42,538 nucleotides of DNA from Candidatus Pelearchaeum maunauluense (GTDB lineage: Archaea; Thermoproteota; Nitrososphaeria_A; Caldarchaeales; Caldarchaeaceae), in NCBI GenBank assembly GCA_030059675.1, contig JANVYQ010000013.1, positions 1-42,538 on the forward strand, given 5' to 3'. The notes below the pieces were generated by a model, which was not told the DNA's origin, made no database searches, and was given only the letters and a program-made list of their open reading frames with translations. Position numbers and translations under genes: made by a program. This document shows, in pieces, positions 4,366-42,538 of the stretch (position 1 is its first letter; each line of letters begins with the position of its first letter).

Positions 4366-4564
4366 TCTAATACCCCGCCTCCCTGCTTCGTTAGCATCTC
4401 TAAATAACCGTTAATCGCCGATTATACAACGCTTCGCAGATTATCTCCTTTAAGCATCTCCGCCGACTATCGTTAAGCATATTTAGTTGATTATGCGTCT
4501 TGGTCATGAGATATAGTAAAAACCTCACGCGGCGTAATAGCAAATTAAGTTGGGCGGCTCTATG

Positions 4565-4969
4565 TTAGGGAGCTGGCGCGCTGTCTATCGCGTCGTTGGC
4601 CAGCTTATCTGCTCCCCGATTATCCTCCCTCCCCACGTGGATTATCTCAAAACTGTCAAACTCGGAAGCCATCTTGGAGGCCTTCTCAAACAGCTCTCTT
4701 ATGCGCTCGTTCCTCACACGATACTCCCCGCGCATCTGCTTAACCAGCAACTCGCTATCAGAATGCACCACAACATCCCTAACACCCAGCTTATAAACCG
4801 CCTCCAGCGCCATGATTAGAGCATGATACTCGGCTTCATTATTCGTCTTCACGCCCAGATACTTACTTATCCTATGCTCGTCGTCGTTGAGATAGATTAT
4901 AACGCCAGCTCCCGCTGGGCCTGGATTACCACGCGCAGCCCCGTCTATGTAGATGTATGCTTTCTTCAA
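4565..4969 (-). CDS. rnhA: Ribonuclease HI
   Basis: YIDGAARGNPGPAGAG, TNNEAEY, SDSELLVKQ and N..ADKLAN motifs. Probable start is TTG at 4969; the ORF-track start at 5008 overlaps rpl10e. Confidence 0.9.
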   Translation of the reverse strand: MKKAYIYIDGAARGNPGPAGAGVIIYLNDDEHRISKYLGVKTNNEAEYHALIMALEAVYKLGVRDVVVHSDSELLVKQMRGEYRVRNERIRELFEKASKMASEFDSFEIIHVGREDNRGADKLANDAIDSAPAP

Positions 4970-4976
4970 GCCTACA

Positions 4977-5483
4977 TTACTGAGCCTTGGCGAGCACCTG
5001 GCGTTCAACTATGTAATACTTCTTCGGGAGCTTCTTTGCGGCCAGCTCAAGAGCCTCCCTAGCGCGTTGAACGCCGTCGGCATATACTAGAACTCTGAAG
5101 ACAGGCCGACCTGGCTCCACGCGCGCTGCCCTCCCTACTGGCTTGCCGAAGGCGCGGCGCATACCCTCCTGAAGCCTATCCGCGTGAGCTCCGAATATCA
5201 TCTTATTCTCGCGCAGGATATGATGCGGATGCGCCTTAAGCTCTGCGAAGAAGTTCTCACCCAGCTTATCCGTCAGGAACTTGTTAAGCGTAATCCTAGC
5301 AGACTCTAGGGCAACATCCCTAATCTGGAGGCTTGTCTCTGGCATTAGGAGGAGCTCATGCGTGTAATCCTCGCGGTACGTCCCTGCGGAGAACTTTGTT
5401 ATCCTGATGGGTGGTGGTCCGTGGATATACTCGTGCCTAGTGTAGGGCATCCCTTCTATTGCGCGGTAGTTCTTGGCCTTCAA
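4977..5483 (-). CDS. rpl10e: 50S ribosomal protein L10e (uL16)
   Basis: HPHHILRENKM..GAHADRLQEGMRRAFGKPVGRAARV signature. Confidence 0.95.
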   Translation of the reverse strand: MKAKNYRAIEGMPYTRHEYIHGPPPIRITKFSAGTYREDYTHELLLMPETSLQIRDVALESARITLNKFLTDKLGENFFAELKAHPHHILRENKMIFGAHADRLQEGMRRAFGKPVGRAARVEPGRPVFRVLVYADGVQRAREALELAAKKLPKKYYIVERQVLAKAQ

Positions 5484-5528
5484 CGCCTTCTCACCTCACC
5501 AGCCTAACCTACCCCATGGCACCCACAA

Positions 5529-6146
5529 TTAAGGATTTAGCTTATGATGCCTCTCCCCCGTAGGCGCTGGCTCGCGGACGAATATTCGGTATTTCTCCTC
5601 CTTATTCATCAGCTCGTCCAGTATTCTCTTGCTTATTGAGCCTGGGGGGTCTAGTAGCCCTACCCTGTTCTTAACGTCCTCGTAGCTCTCAAAGGGCTTT
5701 GCATCCCGTTCTTCCAGTAGTTTTTGGAGCATCTTCTTCCCAACCCCTGGTATTAGCTCTAGCGCATGTAGCCTGGGCGTTAGTGGGTTGCTCTTGTTGA
5801 AGAAATCCACGAAGCGCTGCTCGTTCTCGTTTACGACCCGCTGTATCGTTGCTTCTAGGTTTAGCCGCGCCGTCTCGGTGAGGTCCTCAATACCTATGCG
5901 CCTGACGATGCGTATAAGCTCGCGGGGGGCGTCTCTTCCTATGTATATGCGCATCCCTATCTTGGGCTTGTATCTCTCGGAGACCGCAGCCTCCAAGAGT
6001 GTGAAGTACTCCTCACCAAGGAGCTGGACGATAAACTCGCTCTTTCCTATAGCGTGGTGGGTTGCCAGGCGCCTTCTCTGGGCTGCGGGAAAAATGTCAA
6101 GCACATAAGCATAATCCTCGTATCGCTTCGGCTTTGTCTTCTGCAT
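5529..6146 (-). CDS. DUF655 family predicted RNA-binding protein
   Basis: EDYAYVLD, GEEYFTLLE, FVDFFN, RLHALELIPGVGKK (HhH); conserved position downstream of rpo4. Confidence 0.88.
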   Translation of the reverse strand: MQKTKPKRYEDYAYVLDIFPAAQRRRLATHHAIGKSEFIVQLLGEEYFTLLEAAVSERYKPKIGMRIYIGRDAPRELIRIVRRIGIEDLTETARLNLEATIQRVVNENEQRFVDFFNKSNPLTPRLHALELIPGVGKKMLQKLLEERDAKPFESYEDVKNRVGLLDPPGSISKRILDELMNKEEKYRIFVREPAPTGERHHKLNP

Positions 6147-6186
6147 GGGATTTCACGTCGCAGCCCATAATGAGCCAAACAGGCCT

Positions 6187-6567
6187 TTACTCCTTAAGCT
6201 CGCCGTCAAGCGCCTGCTTGACCAAGCTCACGATACCCTGCATCTTCTCCTCCGAGAATAGGAGGAACGAGACTAGGCGCTTGTATCCGCTTAGGATTGC
6301 CCGAAGCTCCTCCACGCTTGTCGGGCATGAGTCGGCAACCTGCACGGCCTCCCCGCGTGTGAGGCCGTAGCTTGAGGGGTCCATGAGCTTCTTGATGAGG
6401 AGCTCCGCCTGGTCCGCGCGTAGCCTTGAGTATTTCCTGACGTAGCTTAGGGTGCGCATCTGTAGGGGATTTAGGGCTGTCTCATGCTCAGCCAATATAC
6501 GCTCAACTACCGCAATGGGAACCTCGGTCTTAGATAGGATTTTCCGCGCCACTACGCGCTCACCCAT
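6187..6567 (-). CDS. rpo4: RNA polymerase subunit Rpo4 (F)
   Basis: RTLSYVRKYS and AVQVADSCPTSVEELRAIL; lies between rpl21e and DUF655. Confidence 0.85.
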   Translation of the reverse strand: MGERVVARKILSKTEVPIAVVERILAEHETALNPLQMRTLSYVRKYSRLRADQAELLIKKLMDPSSYGLTRGEAVQVADSCPTSVEELRAILSGYKRLVSFLLFSEEKMQGIVSLVKQALDGELKE

Positions 6568-11895: not shown

Positions 11896-11996
11896 GGGCC
11901 GGTAGATCAGCGGAAGATCGCCCGCCTTGCACGCGGGAGGTCGCGAGTCAGTCCCTGATGGGGCTGGCCGATAAGGTTCAAATCCCGCCCGGTCCA
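11896..11996 (+). tRNA. tRNA-Ala(TGC) with a 29-nt intron (11946-11974) in the T-stem, position 51/52
   Basis: Acceptor GGGCCGG/CCGGTCC with G3:U70; anticodon arm CCCGC-CTTGCAC-GCGGG. The T-arm GCG|GG-TTCAAAT-CCCGC is restored after removing the intron. BHB-type motif: helix GTCG/CGAT, bulges CG|A and AA|G. Confidence 0.92.
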
Positions 11997-12075
11997 TTGG
12001 GGTTTCAAAACCCCCCGGCCCACGTTTAAACAAGCAAGCGTAAAAGGGAAAAAATAGGGAGGAGGTGGCCAGGCA

Positions 12076-12724
12076 TTATCTGACCACCTCAAGTATAGCC
12101 TGCTTCCTGCTAATAGCAAAGCCTACAAGATTTCTGAACCGCTTTATGCTAGCCCTTCTGTAGAATGTATAGTATTATGTTGATAGTCTTTCTACGCCGT
12201 AGTCAGCAGTTTCAAGATAGATAGACTTCAGATGGAGGGGGTTTCCCCAGGCCTAAGGCTCTTCCAAGAGCTCATGGGGGCTTGGGAGGTTCACCCTGAC
12301 AGGTGATGAGGCTGACGAGGGCTCCGATGAACCCATGAGGAGCCCCGAGGTTGATGAATCCCAAGACCTACGTATGCCCATGAAAGACTACGCAGGTCAG
12401 AACCCTTTTGTAACATCTTCTATTGATGGTAAATCGTCGCTTCATTGTTCTTTTGTAAATCTTAGCTTCTATTTCGAGCTTCTTTAGTAACTCGGCTGTA
12501 TATCTAATGATTCTGCAGTTAGCATTTAAAATTCGTATACGTCCAAGATTGGCTGCGTCTTTGGCAACGCTGCCTTCAGCATCTGCTAGTCCTCTTATGA
12601 ACGCGGCCATGCATTCCTTGCAGTGCTCTACGTAAGGCTTAAGCCTCTCTATATCTACAGGCTTCCTCAGCAGCTCGTAAAATTCTCTGCTATATATCTT
12701 GACTATCCATCGCTGAAGACTCAT
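12076..12724 (-). pseudogene. Free-standing LAGLIDADG endonuclease relic: 5'-truncated, interrupted by repeat copy 1, frameshifted
   Basis: AFIRGLADAEGSV motif in the 12368-12724 ORF. The family-like tail YRRASIKRFRNLVGFAISRKQAILEVVR* lies on the far side of the repeat (stop at 12076-12078). Confidence 0.8.
12197..12405 (+). mobile_element. Non-autonomous mini-element, copy 1 (longest; CC...CC bounded; IS607-like)
   Basis: Near-identical to 40005-40175 and 42449-42538 in reverse complement. Removing it plus one CC restores an in-frame TAC AAA AGG CGT AGA AAG in the host gene. Right-end hairpin at 12365-12374/12389-12398. Confidence 0.8.
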
Positions 12725-12885
12725 AAGGGGACAGTTGCAGGGCTACGACCAGCACATGAACCTAGTTCTAGAAGGCGCCGAAGAGCTTCTGGCATAATGG
12801 GCAATCAAATAAGCTAGGCATGATAGTCGTCCGCGGCGACAACATAGTTATGGTTTCTCCTTCTACCATAAAGAAGGAAGAGTAG
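12723..12885 (+). pseudogene. Sm-like protein SmAP1 (Lsm) relic: no N-terminus, one frameshift
   Basis: IRGQLQGYDQHMNLVLEGAEE (Sm1 motif), frame change near 12790, then KLGMIVVRGDNIVMVSP (Sm2 motif); directly upstream of rpl37e, as is typical. Confidence 0.85.
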
Positions 12886-12898
12886 AGGGGATTATTGG

Positions 12899-13039
12899 AT
12901 GGTAAAAGGCACGCCCTCGATGGGTAAATTTCACACACCCACGCATGGACGATGCAGACGATGCGCTCATTGCGGCTTCGGCTCTACGAAGACCTGGCGT
13001 AAATATAGATGGCTCAAAAGCCTCAAAGAAAGAATGTAG
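12899..13039 (+). pseudogene. rpl37e: Ribosomal protein L37e with an in-frame internal deletion in the zinc ribbon
   Basis: [46 protein letters not shown]. Only three Cys remain; about 12 residues between CRRC and CxxC are missing. Confidence 0.8.
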
Positions 13040-13073
13040 CACCTAATTCTCGTAAGCAACACTTGCATCTGTC

Positions 13074-15857
13074 TCACCCAGCTACAAGCTTTCTTATGAC
13101 GTATTGCAGTATCCCTCCATGTTTATAATACTCCACCTCTATCGGCGTTTCTAACCTTGCAATCACGTTAAATGTTATCTCTGTTCCATCATCTTTCTTT
13201 GCTTTTACTTTGAGTTTCTTTCTTGGTGTTAGGCCGTCTGCTATTCCCTCTATGTCGTATGTCTCGTGTCCTGTTAAGCCTAGTGATTTCCAGCTCTGGC
13301 CTTCTTCAAACTGTAGTGGTAGGACGCCCATTCCTACTAGGTTGCTTCTGTGTATTCTTTCGTAGCTCTCTGCTATCACGGCCCTAACGCCTAGGAGGCG
13401 TGTTCCTTTGGCAGCCCAGTCGCGTGAGCTTCCCGCTCCGTATTGCTTTCCTGCCAGGATTATGAGTGGTATGTTCTGCTGCATGTAGCGCATAGCAGCG
13501 TCATAAACGGGCATGACCTCCCCAGTTGGGTGGTAGAGCGTCCACCAGCCCTCCTTATCGGGAACGAGCTGGTTCCTCAGCCTGATGTTGGCGAACGTCC
13601 CCCTTATCATGACCTCGTGATTACCCCGCCGCGCGCCGTATGTGTTAAAATCAACCGGGTCTACACCCATGTCTATGAGGTATCTTCCAGCGGGGCTTGC
13701 TGGCGGTATTGCGCCTGCTGGGGATATGTGGTCTGTTGTTACCCTGTCTCCAAGCAGAACCAGTACCCGCGCCCCCTTTATGTCCGTCGGCGACGGTGGC
13801 TCCAGCTTGATGTCGCTGAAGAATGGGGGCTCGCGTATGTATGTGGAGCGGGTGTCCCACTCGTATATCTCGCCTCTAGGTGATTCTAGGCTCTCCCAAC
13901 GCTCATCACCCCTAAAGACGTCGGCGTATTTACGCTTGAACATCTCTGGGTCTAGAGACTTCCTGATGGTTTCTTTGATTTCTTCCATACTGGGCCATAT
14001 GTCGCGTAGGTAGATTGGGTTGCCGTTTTTGTCGCTTCCTATGGGCTCGTTGAGCAGGTCTATGTCCATACGCCCAGCCAGGCCGTAGGCAACAACCAAG
14101 ATGGGCGACATTAGGAAACTAGCCCTAACCAACGGGTGGATTCTGCCTTCAAAGTTTCTATTACCGCTTAGAACGGCGACGGTGTAGAGGTCGTTATCCT
14201 TTATTGCCTTGGCAACGACTTCGGGAAGCGGGCCGCTATTACCTATGCAGGTAGTGCATCCATAGCCGACGACGTTATACTTAAGGCTCTCAAGATACTT
14301 GGCCAGCCCTGCCCTCTCAAGATATTCTGTTACTACCATGGAGCCTGGCGCTAGGCTTGTTTTGACGTAAGGCTTCACGCTTAGACCTTTTTCCACTGCC
14401 TTCTTGGCTAGGAGGCCAGCTCCTATCATTACTGCAGGGTTTGAGGTGTTTGTGCAGCTTGTTATGGCTGATATGACTACTGCTCCATGCGTTATCTCGG
14501 TCTCTTCACCATCTACACGGAGCTTGACGCTGGGCAGCCCCACTTTGCGGGCTACGGACTGGGCTCCAGCCGCGCCTCCTCCCTCATAAAACCAGACATG
14601 GTCATCCTCCACCTCAACGGATATACCCCTCTGCTTAAGGTAGCTGCTCATTATCTCAATAAACCGCTTCTTCGCCTCGCGTAGTGGTATCCTGTCCTCT
14701 GGATTGGCAGGCCCAGCTATTGAGGGCTCAACCTCGCTCATATCCAGCTCTATGACGGCGCTATACCGCGGCTCGCTGGCCTCGTCGTAGAAGAGGGCCT
14801 GGGTCTTGGCGTATTTCTCAACGAGCTTGATATGCTGCTCCTCGCGGCCTGTGAGTCTGAGGTATGATATTGTCTCCTCGTCTATCGGGAAGAACCCTAC
14901 CGTAGCACCGTATTCTGGGGCCATGTTGGCTACGGTGGCCCTGTCAGCTATGCTGAGCTTCTTGAGGCCTGGGCCGTAGTATTCAACAAACTTGCCTACA
15001 ACTCCGTGTTTTCTGAGCTTCTCGGTTATCGTCAGCACCAGGTCTGTTGCTGTTGAGCCGCGGGGTAGCTCGCCGTCAAGCCTTACCCCCACAACCTCTG
15101 GGATGGGCATGTAGTATGGCTGGCCCAGCATAACCGCTTCTGCCTCAATCCCCCCAACACCCCAGCCGAGAACACCCAGCGCATTAACCATAGGAGTATG
15201 CGAGTCAGTGCCAAGCAGGGTGTCGGGAAAAGCCACACCATCACGAACATCAACAACACGCGCCAAATACTCCAGATTAACCTGATGAACAATACCCCGA
15301 CCAGGTGGCACAACCCTGAAATTCTTGAAAGCCTGCTGAGCCCACTTAAGGAACAGATACCTCTCGCGATTCCTCTCAAACTCCTTCTCAATATTGAGAC
15401 TAAAAGCAGTAGGGGAGCCGAAGAAGTCAACCTGTATTGAGTGGTCTATTACTAGATCAACTGGGACCAGCGGGTTTATCTTGCTTGGGTCGCCTCCCAG
15501 TCTTCGCAGGGCTGAACGCATGGCCGCGAGGTCCACTACCGCGGGCACGCCTGTAAAGTCTTGTAGAAGAACGCGAGTCGGCTTAAATGGGATTTCAGAG
15601 GATTTGGAAGAAACACCAGGCCTCCAAGAAGCCAGACTCCTAACATCATCCTCGGTTACTATCTCATTATCCACGTTGCGCAGAATATTCTCCAGTAAAA
15701 CTCTGATACTATAAGGAAGCTCTGACAGGGTTGTTAAGCCTTTCTTTTCCAGGCTCCTGAGGCTGTAGTATTTTACCTCCAGCCCGTCGGAAGCTAGAGT
15801 AGCCTCTACATGGCTCCTGAGCATCCCACCGCCCTTAAGGCTGCCTGTGAATACCAT
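13074..15857 (-). CDS. acnA: Aconitate hydratase AcnA
   Basis: LQDFTGVP, DSHT, SCTNTSN, GCTTCIGNSG and GSSRDWAAKG. Confidence 0.95.
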   Translation of the reverse strand: MVFTGSLKGGGMLRSHVEATLASDGLEVKYYSLRSLEKKGLTTLSELPYSIRVLLENILRNVDNEIVTEDDVRSLASWRPGVSSKSSEIPFKPTRVLLQDFTGVPAVVDLAAMRSALRRLGGDPSKINPLVPVDLVIDHSIQVDFFGSPTAFSLNIEKEFERNRERYLFLKWAQQAFKNFRVVPPGRGIVHQVNLEYLARVVDVRDGVAFPDTLLGTDSHTPMVNALGVLGWGVGGIEAEAVMLGQPYYMPIPEVVGVRLDGELPRGSTATDLVLTITEKLRKHGVVGKFVEYYGPGLKKLSIADRATVANMAPEYGATVGFFPIDEETISYLRLTGREEQHIKLVEKYAKTQALFYDEASEPRYSAVIELDMSEVEPSIAGPANPEDRIPLREAKKRFIEIMSSYLKQRGISVEVEDDHVWFYEGGGAAGAQSVARKVGLPSVKLRVDGEETEITHGAVVISAITSCTNTSNPAVMIGAGLLAKKAVEKGLSVKPYVKTSLAPGSMVVTEYLERAGLAKYLESLKYNVVGYGCTTCIGNSGPLPEVVAKAIKDNDLYTVAVLSGNRNFEGRIHPLVRASFLMSPILVVAYGLAGRMDIDLLNEPIGSDKNGNPIYLRDIWPSMEEIKETIRKSLDPEMFKRKYADVFRGDERWESLESPRGEIYEWDTRSTYIREPPFFSDIKLEPPSPTDIKGARVLVLLGDRVTTDHISPAGAIPPASPAGRYLIDMGVDPVDFNTYGARRGNHEVMIRGTFANIRLRNQLVPDKEGWWTLYHPTGEVMPVYDAAMRYMQQNIPLIILAGKQYGAGSSRDWAAKGTRLLGVRAVIAESYERIHRSNLVGMGVLPLQFEEGQSWKSLGLTGHETYDIEGIADGLTPRKKLKVKAKKDDGTEITFNVIARLETPIEVEYYKHGGILQYVIRKLVAG

Positions 15858-16328: not shown

Positions 16329-16446
16329 TGGTGCGGGGGGTGGGATTTGAACCCACGAACCCCTTCGGGAGCAGGTCTTGAGCCTGCCGCTTTCAAGGGG
16401 AGCTTTCCTTTGTTGCTCCTCTTTGACCAGGCTCGGCTACCCCCGC
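16329..16446 (-). tRNA. tRNA-Leu(CAA) with encoded CCA and a 30-nt intron (16391-16420) in the D-stem, position 23/24
   Basis: Minus strand: GCGGGGGTAGCCGAGCCTGGTCAAAG|intron|GCGGCAGG-CTCAAGA-CCTGC, long variable arm, GTGGGTTCAAATCCCAC. BHB-type helix TCAA/TTGA with bulges AG|A and AA|G. Confidence 0.92.
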
Positions 16447-40004: not shown

Positions 40005-40175
40005 GGGTTCTGACCTACGTAGTCTTTCATGGACATACGTAGGTCTTGGGATTCATCAGCCTAGGGCTCCTCATGAGCTCATCGGAGCCCTCATAAGCTC
40101 TTGGAAGAGCCTTAGGCCTGGGGAAACCCCCTCCATTTTAAGTCTATCTATCTTGAAACTGCTGACTACCTACGG
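40005..40175 (-). mobile_element. Non-autonomous mini-element, copy 2
   Basis: Reverse complement of copy 1, lacking a 41-nt internal block and carrying a 4-nt terminal duplication; bounded by GG...GG on the plus strand; perfect 10-bp inverted repeat at 40012-40021/40036-40045. Confidence 0.8.
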
Positions 40176-40225: not shown

Positions 40226-42373
40226 ATGACAACCACCCTAGGGAAAGAAGCAACCCTATACCGCGAACAGGACAACAGAATAATATGCACAGCCTGCGCC
40301 CGCTACTGCAGGCTCGCAGACGGCCAGATAGGACTATGCGGAATACGCGGCGTAGTAAACGGAAAACTACACCTCCTAGTCTACGGCAAAGTCATAACAG
40401 GCCACGTAGACCCAATCGAGAAAAAGCCAGTAACACACTACATGCCAGGAACTAAGATCTTCAGCATAGCGACTACTGGCTGCAACTGGCTCTGCCATCC
40501 AGCGGGGACAGAGATACTGATGTCCGACGGAAGTAGGAAGAGGGTCGAGGATATAGTACCCGGAGACGTGTTATGGTCGTATGATATAGATGGCGGTGTG
40601 GCGATTAGGCCAAGCGTAGTTACTCACGTGGGTATGCGAACGGCTAGGTTATTAGAGATTAGGTATGGGAGCAGGGGAGAGGGTAGAATACTTCTTACGG
40701 AGGAACACCCAGTCTATACTAAGAGCGGCTGGAAGATGGCATCAGAGCTAAAGAGTGGCGACTACATAGTGAAAGTCTGGTATCAGAATACACAGAAATC
40801 GAGGGAGAAGCGTAAGATAAGCATCAAGAACGCCGTTTTCCGCTGTAAGGTATGTGGTAAGGAGGTTAAGGGACTAGACGAGTGGAATAAGCATAGGGGA
40901 GAATGCTATACAGAGGGATTAAAGAAGCCAGTCGAGGCAATAAAAGCGGCTAGGCTCAGAATGCTCTTTAATAACCCTATGAAGGATCCCGAAATAGCAC
41001 GTAAAGCCTTAGAGAATAACAAGGCAAGGTTTCTCCACGACCCAACGCATGGGTGGCATAGAAACGCAGAACGCTTAAGGGAGTGGCTCCATAGGCACCC
41101 CTCGGCAGCCCAGCTCAAGCTTTACGAGCTATTAGACGAGCTAGGAATACCCTACGAGCAGGAATACAAAATAATCCCTGAGAGAAAAATAGAGGGTTCT
41201 AAGTCATGCTATATAGCAGACGCAGCAATACCTGAGGCAAAGCTGGTCATAGAGGTGGATGGCTATTGGCATTTCTATAACGAGAGAGTCAAAGAGTACG
41301 ATAGGATTAAGGACGAGACGCTTAGAGCTAACGGCTGGGACGTGCTGCGTATATCAGGCAGCTATCTATTCAATCACCCTGAGGAAGTCAAACAGCTAAT
41401 ACTCAGCCGGGCTATGCGCCCAGTCATGGTCAACAAGAAGAAATGGCTCGTAGTTAAGAGCGTTAAACCGCTAGACCATATGGAGACTGTTTATAGCCTA
41501 GAATGTATACCGCACCACAACTACGTGGCAGACGGGATCTTAGTACATAACTGTCAATATTGCCAGAACTTCGACATAAGCCAGCGGCGCAAGGTTGAGG
41601 GGTTTGATGCCTCGCCTGAGGATGTGGTGAGGCTTGCCAAGCGTTATCGTAGTGAGGGTATCGCATACACGTATAACGAGCCGACCATTTTTATGGAGTA
41701 TGCGCATGATATCGGCGTTATAGCGCGCCGCGAGGGTTTGATTAACATCTTCGTTACGAATGGTTTCTGGACTCCTGACTCGGTTAAGCTTGCCGCAGAT
41801 TTTCTAGATTGCGCTACCGTTGATTTTAAGGGGAACGCCGAGCCTGGTTTTGTTCAGCGCTATATTGGGATTCCAAGCCCTGAGCCAATCTTCCAAACGC
41901 TGCTGGAGATACGGGATAAGACGAAGATACATATTGAGATTACCGACCTGGTTGTTCCGCAGATTGGGGATAATCTAGAGTATGCGCGCCGCCTCGCTAG
42001 GTGGGTTTACGAGAACCTAGGCCCAGATACGCCGATACACTTCCTCCGCTTCCACCCTGATTATAGGTTGATGAACCTGCCTTGGACGCCTGTGGAGACC
42101 CTTGAACGGCACTGGAAGATAGCCAGGGAGGAGGGGCTGCGCTACGTATACGTGGGGAACGTTCCAGGGCATCCTTACGAGAATACCTACTGCCCTGGCT
42201 GTGGTGTTGTCGTGGTTGAGCGGCACGGCTTCGACATAATAAACTGGCGGCTAGACGGGAAGAACCGATGCCTGGAGTGCGGGTATCCAGTGGCGATAAT
42301 AGGCAGGCCGCCTCAAAGATACGTGCCGAGTAGGAGCAGGTTTATCCCAGTCGTATGGGAGAAGCAGCCTTAA
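40226..42373 (+). CDS. AmmeMemoRadiSam-type (PFL-AE-like) radical SAM enzyme containing an intein
   Basis: CTACARYC...GLCGIR, VDPIEKKP, GCNWL[intein]CQYCQN, AYTYNEP, FHPDY and YVYVGNVPGH. Confidence 0.9.
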   Translation: MTTTLGKEATLYREQDNRIICTACARYCRLADGQIGLCGIRGVVNGKLHLLVYGKVITGHVDPIEKKPVTHYMPGTKIFSIATTGCNWLCHPAGTEILMSDGSRKRVEDIVPGDVLWSYDIDGGVAIRPSVVTHVGMRTARLLEIRYGSRGEGRILLTEEHPVYTKSGWKMASELKSGDYIVKVWYQNTQKSREKRKISIKNAVFRCKVCGKEVKGLDEWNKHRGECYTEGLKKPVEAIKAARLRMLFNNPMKDPEIARKALENNKARFLHDPTHGWHRNAERLREWLHRHPSAAQLKLYELLDELGIPYEQEYKIIPERKIEGSKSCYIADAAIPEAKLVIEVDGYWHFYNERVKEYDRIKDETLRANGWDVLRISGSYLFNHPEEVKQLILSRAMRPVMVNKKKWLVVKSVKPLDHMETVYSLECIPHHNYVADGILVHNCQYCQNFDISQRRKVEGFDASPEDVVRLAKRYRSEGIAYTYNEPTIFMEYAHDIGVIARREGLINIFVTNGFWTPDSVKLAADFLDCATVDFKGNAEPGFVQRYIGIPSPEPIFQTLLEIRDKTKIHIEITDLVVPQIGDNLEYARRLARWVYENLGPDTPIHFLRFHPDYRLMNLPWTPVETLERHWKIAREEGLRYVYVGNVPGHPYENTYCPGCGVVVVERHGFDIINWRLDGKNRCLECGYPVAIIGRPPQRYVPSRSRFIPVVWEKQP
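40493..41551 (+). mobile_element. Intein (353 aa) with internal Zn-finger-like segment and Vsr/DUF559-type endonuclease
   Basis: Block A CHPAGTEILMSDG, block B LTEEHPVY, blocks F/G VYSLEC..HHNYVADGILVHN followed by Cys(+1); internal YIADAAI...VIEVDGYWH...D..KDETL...GWDVLRI. Confidence 0.92.
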
Positions 42374-42448: not shown

Positions 42449-42538
42449 GGGTTCTGACCTGCGTAGTCTTTCATGGGCATACGTAGGTCTTGGGATTCAT
42501 TAGCCTAGGGCTCCTCATGGGTTCATCGGAGCCCTCAT
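42449..42538 (-). mobile_element. Non-autonomous mini-element, copy 3 (cut by the window end)
   Basis: GGGTTCTGACCTGCGTAGTCTTTCATGGGCATACGTAGGTCTTGGGATTCAT... matches copies 1 and 2. Confidence 0.8.

Follow-up and report, generated by a model that had tools for sequence, protein, structure and literature searches.

What is the short repeat that occurs three times in a single contig of Candidatus Pelearchaeum maunauluense without encoding a protein, and by what means could it have been moved? The window analyzed in this study is the whole 42,538-bp contig (C15) of an assembly (G000) of 1.79 Mb in 21 contigs with a completeness of 94%. An earlier note on the same DNA, made from the sequence alone, had proposed a non-autonomous mini-element mobilized in trans by an IS607-like system. 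Altogether, we regard it as highly probable that the repeat, protein-less and non-autonomous, derives by deletion from an insertion sequence (IS) of the IS607 family, which is equipped with a serine-recombinase TnpA and an RNA-guided TnpB and circulates among thermophilic archaea. From its parent, the mini-element has retained approximately 30 bp of left-end sequence and the terminal 135-177 bp, as well as the CC (GG on the opposite strand) crossover dinucleotide at both junctions.

Copies, termini and target sites

The boundaries of the copies in the window were set by exact string search. The three stretches were found where the earlier note had placed them, apart from a flanking dinucleotide that had been included in its coordinates. 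Copy 1 (positions 12199-12405, + strand, which is the sense strand of the lost tnpB; 207 bp) represents a long form of the repeat, and copy 2 (40005-40173, - strand; 169 bp) represents a short form in which GTAG (4 nt) is duplicated at the left end. Copy 3 (42449-42538, - strand) comprises the right-end 90 nt only, the contig ending inside the repeat. BLASTN with copy 1 against the whole assembly retrieved 12 matching pieces (E-values from 1e-112 to 1e-5), and seven complete copies were identified, namely two in C15 and one each in C2, C8, C20, C18, and C14. Additionally, BLASTN detected an internal 80-nt right-end fragment at C8:53310-53389, C8 and C13 start, and C15 ends, with pieces of the repeat, and the last 12 nt of C11 correspond to the right end. 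With these four contig ends lying inside copies, the repeat is one cause of the fragmentation of the assembly. The pieces at the end of C15 and the start of C8 overlap yet differ in a polymorphic loop, so that they are not joinable as one copy. Further copies were thus present as anticipated, albeit the "large family" of the earlier note was an overstatement: approximately 10-11 copies reside in 1.79 Mb, and three of them happened to fall on one contig.

The long form of 207-208 bp was represented by two copies and the short form of 164-169 bp by five. The copies of this genome share pairwise identities of 92.6-98.2%, and the flanks of different copies are mutually unrelated. The short copies lack a 41-nt segment (12273-12313 on the + strand in copy 1) that lies between direct repeats GCTNATGRGGGC, and this segment was lost by deletion between the repeats. 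The long copy 1 is 98.2% identical to the short copy in C8 and 95.1% identical to the other long copy; judging from such identities, the difference between the two forms seems to be recurrent. The segment is also absent from a tnpB-bearing relative (L015 in G007:C13), in which its absence would drop approximately 14 codons of the TnpB tail.

On the strand used in the earlier note, the sequence of every complete copy is flank-GG-GTTCTGACC...CTAC-GG-C-flank, and on the tnpB-sense strand it is ..GCC/GTAGTC...CAGAACCC/N (slashes mark boundaries), CC of the latter being GG of the former. In copy 1, the target-side CC at the left junction occupies 12197-12198 (+ strand) and is preceded by a conserved G at 12196, and the element-side CC at the right junction occupies 12404-12405 (+ strand), where the right end closes with ..GAACCC. 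Among the 29 distinct right ends listed across the family, 24 keep this sequence, and the junctions GCC/..ACCC/ were found in all of the copies of this genome and in most relatives. The GG reported to bound both complete copies in the window, as well as the empty-site strings deduced from them, proved to be correct readings of the flanks.

The left-end remnant of copy 1 (12199-12228, + strand) consists of GTAGTC and a conserved AGCAGTTTC..GATAGACTT block. The earlier note had seen no clear terminal inverted repeat, and the sole one detected here is a 7-nt subterminal complement (CGTAGTC and GACTACG in copy 1), which is not conserved because family members differ in the first 6 nt of the left end. 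Across the family, the six bases after CC vary freely (GTAGTC, GTAGCT, GTTGAC, GTCGCC, TTCCTC, and ATATCC), the next approximately 30 bases being conserved; the six bases bear a loose resemblance to GTAGCT, found ahead of CAGAAC at the right end. By eye, we noticed two candidates for the directly repeated subterminal motifs that the TnpA of the IS607 family binds, namely AWAGAC, occurring in the left end (ATAGACT) and in the right end (AAAGACT and CAAGAC), and GTAGNY..CAG at both ends. The absence of a long target duplication was likewise upheld, as nothing is duplicated except the dinucleotide. Elements of the IS607 family are described to have no inverted repeats, to produce no duplication, and to carry GG at the termini and in the target (PMC6188088). 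The repeat agrees with this description in both the lack of terminal inverted repeats and the lack of a target duplication, with the same dinucleotide at the termini and in the target.

The profile of the left flanks was prepared from 26 raw distinct flanks of this and other genomes, including approximately four offset or false rows. On the sense strand, position -3 was G in 21 of the 26, positions -2 and -1 were C in 22 each, position -4 was C or T in 20, and position -5 was A in 15. Among the distinct right flanks, +1 was T in 15 of 29, and +2 was T or A in 24 of 29. Concerning the AAGG(C) preference proposed previously, the C after GG is nearly invariant (corresponding to the G at -3), whereas the AA turned out to be a weak trend only (corresponding to +1 and +2). 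In three metagenome contigs (L103, L104, and L108), a 275-bp mini-element immediately follows another right end (..CTAGAACCC-G-CC/). Where a G adjoins a right end, the GCC target is created anew, and this may favour tandem insertions.

Full-length relatives and the internal deletion

Matches to the repeat were found in 11 of the 60 relatives searched and in metagenome contigs, and the single genome of the same genus (G001) had no copy. In several relatives, matches to the left and right ends were separated by 1.3-1.5 kb. An element of 1.44 kb in G039:C9 (L014/L052) has the same ends (..ACGCC/GTAGCTAGCAGTTTC ... CTCAGAACCC/TT) and contains an open reading frame (ORF) of 418 aa with the TnpB TNB domain, preceded by the two ends of a deleted tnpA. 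When this TnpB was searched against one genome per species, 13 loci were obtained; the loci were found in metagenome-assembled genomes labelled as Nitrososphaeria/Caldarchaeales, Bathyarchaeia, and Methanomethylicales, together with one distant haloarchaeal match and one short match.

In three relatives (L053, L057, and L056), the same left end is followed by a TnpA ORF of 201-202 aa, TnpB (PF07282), and the same right end. The full-length relatives with homologous ends are 1.4-1.9 kb in length, L053 being 1896 bp. Pfam assigned the MerR domain (PF00376) to residues 6-41 (1.3e-10) and the Resolvase domain (PF00239) to residues 59-191 (2.3e-22) of the 202-aa TnpA of L053, along with HTH_17 (4.4e-11), and the motif GYARVSS was recognized by eye. 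The TnpB ORFs (418-439 aa, PF07282) are located downstream of tnpA and end near the right end; the TNB domain of the parent TnpB was detected by Pfam with 1.2e-13. A MerR-type helix-turn-helix (HTH) domain followed by a serine-recombinase domain defines the TnpA of the IS607 family (PMC6188088). The parent bears this TnpA as well as an accessory tnpB downstream. The IS607-like reading was thus borne out by longer elements with homologous ends that enclose a serine-recombinase tnpA and a tnpB, and neither a Y1 nor a DEDD transposase was found in L053, L057, and L056. An IS110-like (DEDD) mechanism was dropped, as no such gene was present in any parent.

Mapped on the 1896-bp L053, the mini-elements correspond to its left end (6-30) and its positions 1716-1896. 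Positions 6-30 of copy 1 are 92% identical to the left end of L053, and positions 28-207 are 82% identical to its last 181 nt. Besides the approximately 30 bp of the left end, the second retained block comprises the last approximately 56 codons of tnpB and the right end, and tblastn detected the 56-aa C-terminal remnant of TnpB in every copy of this genome. The "non-coding sequence" of the earlier note is indeed protein-less, but the note overlooked that the 3' end of tnpB, which is the omega-RNA module, makes up its body. Just after the left-end remnant, the deletion removed the TATA-like CTTAAATAGA and the start of tnpA of the parent. The deletion junction, GACTT/CAGATGG, was found as ..GATAGACTT/CAGATGGAGGGG in the seven complete copies and two contig-end pieces (with CTTAAAATGG in copy 2). 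As the same junction is seen at unrelated loci, the deletion preceded the amplification, and one product was multiplied.

It may be argued that the copies are full-length insertions that decayed separately, or pieces spread by segmental duplication, since decayed forms abound among the relatives (remnants of tnpA, copies with tnpB only, and ends truncated like the one at C8:53310). Nevertheless, independent decay would not yield the internal deletion junction shared by all complete copies, and segmental duplication would have copied the flanks, which are in fact unrelated. We consider this explanation very improbable.

The relatives and metagenomes carry another class of mini-elements of 275-291 bp, in which the left end, TATA-like CTTAAATAGA included, is combined with a conserved module of approximately 60 nt and the same 3' approximately 181 nt, and a further mini form of 475 bp was found. 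The right-hand breakpoint lies within a few nucleotides of the same place in the 166-207-bp, 275-291-bp, and 475-bp forms. The approximately 60-nt module (AAGCGCGGAC..GGATGATGCG), located between the left end and the 3' block (L034 1320-1599, L038 on the - strand, and L101-L108), showed no match to L053; it may represent a 5' portion of the RNA or a k-turn-like motif. A looser pattern of the left end recovered nine metagenome loci, comprising six 275-291-bp mini-elements and three cut by the end of the locus, and none of them was full-length. TnpA genes of the IS607 type occur in the relatives rich in copies; those that are intact share 57-58% identity with L053 TnpA, and the closer ones are fragmentary or interrupted by stops.

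The omega-RNA-like scaffold and a proposed cycle

The last approximately 56 codons of tnpB and the right end form an omega-RNA-like scaffold in copy 1 (12229-12405, + strand), which ends with ..CAGAACCC. We aligned the last approximately 177 nt of 23 family members, seven of which are the copies of this genome and 16 of which are from other genomes, and the RNAalifold consensus comprised 23 pairs in five helices, with compensatory changes in nine pairs. Helix 3 is a central hairpin (GGGCUCC..GGAGCCC; 12319-12345, + strand in copy 1) with seven pairs, four of which changed on both sides. Helix 5 is a terminal hairpin (12365-12398, + strand) with seven pairs, three of which changed on both sides (GC to or from CG, 14:8; CG to or from UA, 18:5). 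The terminal hairpin ends 7 nt before the right boundary, and its 3' arm contains the tnpB stop codon in the parents (10 nt before the boundary in L014).

In the alignment, 97.5% of the cells were paired as compared with 91.6% in shuffles, and none of 500 shuffles reached the observed values of paired cells, of pairs and of cells with changes on both sides, and of the covariation score. On the other hand, the observed value of a further measure, "further pair types," was reached by 75 of the 500 shuffles. When the partners were slid by 1-3 columns, 23-51% were paired. G-U pairs are frequent on the sense strand (GU in 12 and AU in 10 at pair 76-91), which fits an RNA of the tnpB-sense strand. 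The scaffold RNA of copy 1 has a minimum free energy of -69.8 kcal/mol (z -2.2). The repeat thus has the traits of an omega-RNA, namely the tnpB strand, an overlap with the 3' end of the ORF, an end at the right boundary, and a covarying structure; as far as can be judged from the alignment, its position, strand, and architecture are those of the omega-RNA of TnpB. As for other RNA classes, a hammerhead ribozyme and a C/D-box small RNA were dropped, as the copy 1 region gave only chance-level Rfam matches at E-values up to 10.

Within the seven copies of this genome, variation affects two of 45 paired columns (C to U in both cases, with a G-U pair retained) as compared with 16 of 88 unpaired columns (Fisher p 0.03, the copies not being independent of each other), so that the lower variation of the stems is suggestive among these related copies. 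Such conservation raises another explanation, in which the repeat is a small-RNA family recruited by the host, either a domesticated omega-RNA or a structured RNA with C-box-like GAUGA motifs, that works independently of TnpB and is kept for a cellular function. The fold kept without the cognate proteins, the paired columns varying less than the unpaired ones, three conserved GAUGA motifs in the alignment, and one copy co-oriented within the 16S rRNA intron (see below) can be cited for it. However, the same-genus genome has no copy, the insertion sites are junk-like (including two homing-endonuclease remnants and intergenic DNA), no Rfam C/D-box or other family was found above chance, and low variation of the stems can be inherited from master copies that were selected elsewhere. 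We therefore regard a host function as highly unlikely.

For an IS607-derived element of this sort, the Clostridium botulinum IS607 element provides a model: TnpA(S) excises a gene-less mini-IS as a circle, provided that the core dinucleotides match, end portions of 40 bp (left) and 60 bp (right) are sufficient, integration takes place at TGGG sites, which are the transposon-adjacent motif (TAM) of TnpB, and the omega-RNA of CboIStron ends with ..UCGG at the core dinucleotide (PMC10690162). By analogy, a TnpA supplied in trans would bind the motifs in the ends of the mini-element and exchange strands at the CC/GG dinucleotide. The mini-element would then leave as a small circle of double-stranded DNA and enter 5'-(A)(C/T)G-CC-(T)-3' sites without a target duplication. 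Were the scaffold transcribed, it and approximately 20 nt of the right-flank DNA would serve as an omega-RNA, the flank from 12406 on being the putative guide in copy 1. A cognate TnpB, likewise supplied in trans, would cut the vacated site, which presents the TAM (approximately YGCC) followed by the right flank, and recombination would restore the element. The right end (ACCC) and the target (YGCC) differ at -3, and this difference may protect occupied sites as in the C. botulinum element. Judged from the flanks of the copies, (A)YGCC is the putative TAM.

The parallel with C. botulinum covers the coincidence of the inferred TAM with the target preference, the end of the scaffold at the core dinucleotide, and the base at -3, with G in the target but C in the right end here and a like difference between TGGG and UCGG there (PMC10690162). 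The two systems differ in that the C. botulinum mini-IS was engineered, whereas the protein-less element found here is natural, stems from uncultured thermophilic archaea, and is presumed to have been mobile. Furthermore, no group I intron is present here, in contrast to the C. botulinum IStron, and approximately 30 bp of the left end are kept as compared with the 40 bp reported as critical. The core on the sense strand is CC, and the inferred TAM, (A)YGCC, is C-rich, whereas the TAMs of the characterized IS607 TnpBs given in the sources considered are G-rich (TGGG, AGGAG, and GAGGG).

A more far-reaching version, which we put forward tentatively and hold to be rather doubtful, is that the mini-elements are self-propagating "guide-RNA-only" hyperparasites of IS607, selected to keep the omega-RNA scaffold. 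They would move with a borrowed TnpA and achieve homing-type retention with a borrowed TnpB, both supplied by full elements or incoming mobile DNA. This idea fits the nearly identical 3' breakpoint of the 166-207-bp and 275-291-bp mini-elements, the retained right part, which far exceeds the approximately 60 bp of the right end needed by the C. botulinum TnpA, and the stems that are intact in a genome without both proteins. If it is true, the family would also define a clade of archaeal IS607 TnpBs with a C-rich (YGCC) TAM, opposite in polarity to the characterized G-rich ones.

Mechanism, present state and genomic context

The site in G001 (C72) orthologous to that of the C2 copy is empty and bears one CC, as compared with two in the occupied site: ..TTCG-CC-GTCC.. 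in G001:C72 and ..TTCG-CC-[GTAGTC..CAGAAC]-CC-GTCC.. in G000:C2. An empty site that collapses to a single GG, by which the earlier note would have its proposal judged, was thus found. Removal of the C18 copy at the called boundaries restored a frame of 264 codons, with the joint on a codon boundary. Beyond copy 2, the same-genus genome and the contig of a relative become homologous again precisely from 40174, where GGC starts, and the other flank has diverged. These boundaries fit, as far as sequence comparison goes, an exchange at a two-base core. The remaining orthologous regions of G001 were unusable: one flank was conserved for the C8 copy, the flanks of the C20 copy were on two contigs far from the junction, 129 nt were matched for the C14 copy, and the region of copy 1, from the tRNA gene to approximately 13090, is not colinear in G001 and offers no usable empty site. 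The comparison with public DNA covered the assembled contigs of four distantly matching runs, which shared 6-8% of the sampled words and represent relatives only.

Several observations speak against our reading of the repeat as a non-autonomous derivative of IS607. The only clean empty site departs from the prediction by an extra TTCGCC repeat unit beside the junction and, taken alone, fits a CC crossover and an insertion by another enzyme 3' of GCC equally. The partners found elsewhere have ends 82-93% identical to the copies of this genome, not identical ones, and an exact-pattern search for the left end of the type found in this genome with an intact promoter gave no hit in the genome contigs and none in the metagenome contigs. 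A serine-recombinase TnpA was not detected in the assembly (no PF00239 match in Pfam; best tblastn E-value of 0.54), and the sole further ORF resembling TnpB falls short at its N-terminus and has 26% identity over a stretch of 94 aa. The copies differ by 2-7%, which gives no indication of very recent activity. Finally, Rfam, RAGATH-18 included, gave no match to the scaffold at the gathering score or at E-values up to 10, and the copies of this genome lack the parent's TATA-like box.

Because the empty site cannot discriminate between the enzymes, the assignment of the mechanism rests on the serine recombinase of the parents, the absence of Y1, and the left end, which does not fold as DNA (-0.8 kcal/mol, z +1.18; no hairpin). 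The competing assignment is an IS200/IS605-type element resembling the PATEs (palindrome-associated transposable elements), which would be moved as single-stranded DNA by a Y1 HUH transposase and inserted 3' of a target ending with GCC, the right-end hairpin being the DNA hairpin of the transposase. It accounts for the absence of a duplication, the motif conserved on the left flank only, the strong subterminal hairpin of the right end, and the tnpB-derived body; the empty site is compatible with either mechanism, and PATEs with omega-RNAs have been described for IS605 (PMC10055086). Nevertheless, the three full-length relatives carry a MerR-HTH/serine recombinase and none of them Y1, no Y1_Tnp was found in the genome, the left end has no hairpin, CC is present at both junctions, and the G-U pairs of the right-end hairpin fit a sense-strand RNA. 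The IS200/IS605 assignment, to which we give hardly any credence, is thus close to refuted.

Returning to the IS607 derivative, its present state in this genome is that of an orphan. No autonomous partner was found in the assembly by searches with DNA, the TnpB protein, PF07282, PF01797, PF00239, and tblastn, and Y1 transposases (PF01797) were absent from the assembly as well. In C13 (approximately 4540-6280; L050 434-2166), two TnpB pieces are split between the strands, an N-terminal-like ORF of 152 aa lying on one and an ORF of 297 aa that bears the TNB zinc-finger domain on the other. They are a rearranged remnant of another element, the 297-aa ORF being 26% identical to the TnpB of the family. 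As neither TnpA nor a cognate TnpB was found, mobilization in trans and the use of the guide are impossible with the assembled genes, and the copies look stranded at present. A partner could be unassembled or unbinned, given the completeness of 94% and at least four contig ends inside copies. The lack of copies in the same-genus genome G001 indicates that the burst happened in this lineage after the split of the two. Thus, the copies in this genome most probably persist as stranded relics of an earlier burst in the lineage.

Copy 1 was inserted in the 3' end of a remnant ORF for a LAGLIDADG homing endonuclease (12368-12724, - strand, of which 12406-12724 lie beyond copy 1 and outside the element; Pfam LAGLIDADG_3, 1.1e-12), and its removal in silico extends the frame by 15 codons. 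The surrounding region (11943-13090, from the middle of the tRNA gene at 11896-11996 to approximately 13090) is not colinear with G001, measuring 1.15 kb here and approximately 1.7 kb there. Copy 2 lies in the divergent intergenic region between the genes for a pterin-binding enzyme and a radical-SAM protein, and the 80-nt fragment at C8:53310 is preceded by glycosyltransferase- and methyltransferase-like ORFs and no tnpB.

The copy in C18 (L005 431-596) interrupts a LAGLIDADG-like ORF in an insertion of the 16S rRNA gene and has the same orientation as the rRNA. The 16S rRNA gene on C18 (L005) has the region 830-1478 of the Rfam SSU_rRNA_archaea model spread over 1401 nt, and it contains a 754-bp insertion (L005 213-966) that is absent from the same-genus genome and is presumably an rRNA intron. 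The motifs YWMAGIWAADKG.. and YLAGLFDGDGSV of the LAGLIDADG-like ORF were recognized by eye; in Pfam searches with the two halves of the interrupted ORF, the first half gave nothing, and the second gave an E-value of 0.0029, below the cut-off. This case is selfish DNA nested within selfish DNA inside an rRNA gene, and the C18 copy is surely transcribed, as it is co-oriented inside the 16S rRNA intron.

Two further features of the window were noted. An ORF at 40226-42373 (+ strand) contains a stretch of 1059-1065 bp (40496-41554) that is skipped by the contigs of relatives in three public runs, 1059 being in-frame; Pfam detected an intein splicing domain and a DUF559/restriction-endonuclease-like domain in this stretch within the radical-SAM protein. 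It looks like an intein with an unusual endonuclease, which is present here and absent in the relatives. The tRNA genes at 11896-11996 (+ strand) and 16332-16446 (- strand) bear, according to the Rfam alignment, an insertion of 35 nt in the T arm region and one of 38 nt in the D arm region, respectively, i.e., introns at non-canonical places, and the former gene was not called by ARAGORN. These two intron-bearing tRNAs alone reached the gathering score of Rfam in the window, and their non-canonical introns mark it as archaeal DNA.

Related systems and significance

The parent shares its organization, a MerR-HTH and serine-recombinase TnpA followed by TnpB, with the members of the IS607 family (IS607 of Helicobacter pylori, IS1535, ISC1926, and the C. 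botulinum IStron). An archaeal counterpart by description is SMN1 of Sulfolobus islandicus. Its partner, ISC1733, reportedly consists of a resolvase-type orfA and orfB, and SMN1 is said to have neither inverted repeats nor duplications. SMN1 is a protein-less element of 320 bp, the transposition of which depends on ISC1733 (PMC3718332), and the likeness to the repeat (archaeal, short, free of ORFs, and mobilized by a separate IS) was drawn from the descriptions rather than the sequences. The PATE-like minimal IS200/IS605 elements of Geobacillus stearothermophilus (Meers et al.) are also protein-less derivatives that keep both ends, and they often encode omega-RNAs for the use in trans by the TnpBs of other copies (PMC10055086). 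They differ from the repeat in being moved as single-stranded DNA by a Y1 transposase and in having hairpins at both ends, whereas the parent here bears a serine recombinase and the left end lacks a hairpin; the repeat is thus no PATE. Neither is it a miniature inverted-repeat transposable element (MITE) in the strict sense, as inverted repeats and a target duplication are both missing, albeit it works in a MITE-like manner as a short, ORF-less derivative moved in trans. The right-end RNAs (reRNAs) derived from RAGATH-18 guide the DNA cleavage by bacterial IS607 TnpBs (ISFba1) next to a TAM (PMC11061315). They resemble the scaffold as structured RNAs at and downstream of the 3' end of an IS607 tnpB, and the scaffold here differs in being archaeal, in having no Rfam match, and in the composition of the TAM.

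A non-exhaustive literature search found no description of natural IS607-derived omega-RNA mini-elements in archaea, albeit supplementary tables may list some. The repeat belongs to a kind of selfish DNA already known from the IS607 mini-IS, the PATEs with omega-RNAs, and SMN1, and it reveals no new mechanism. Its identity accounts for several contig breaks and gene disruptions in this genome, including those of two homing-endonuclease remnants, one of which resides in the 16S rRNA intron. For the IS607 family, it provides a natural archaeal example of an element pared down to its ends and a guide-RNA scaffold, and the full-length relatives L053, L056, and L057 offer the TnpA, the TnpB, and the scaffold for testing.

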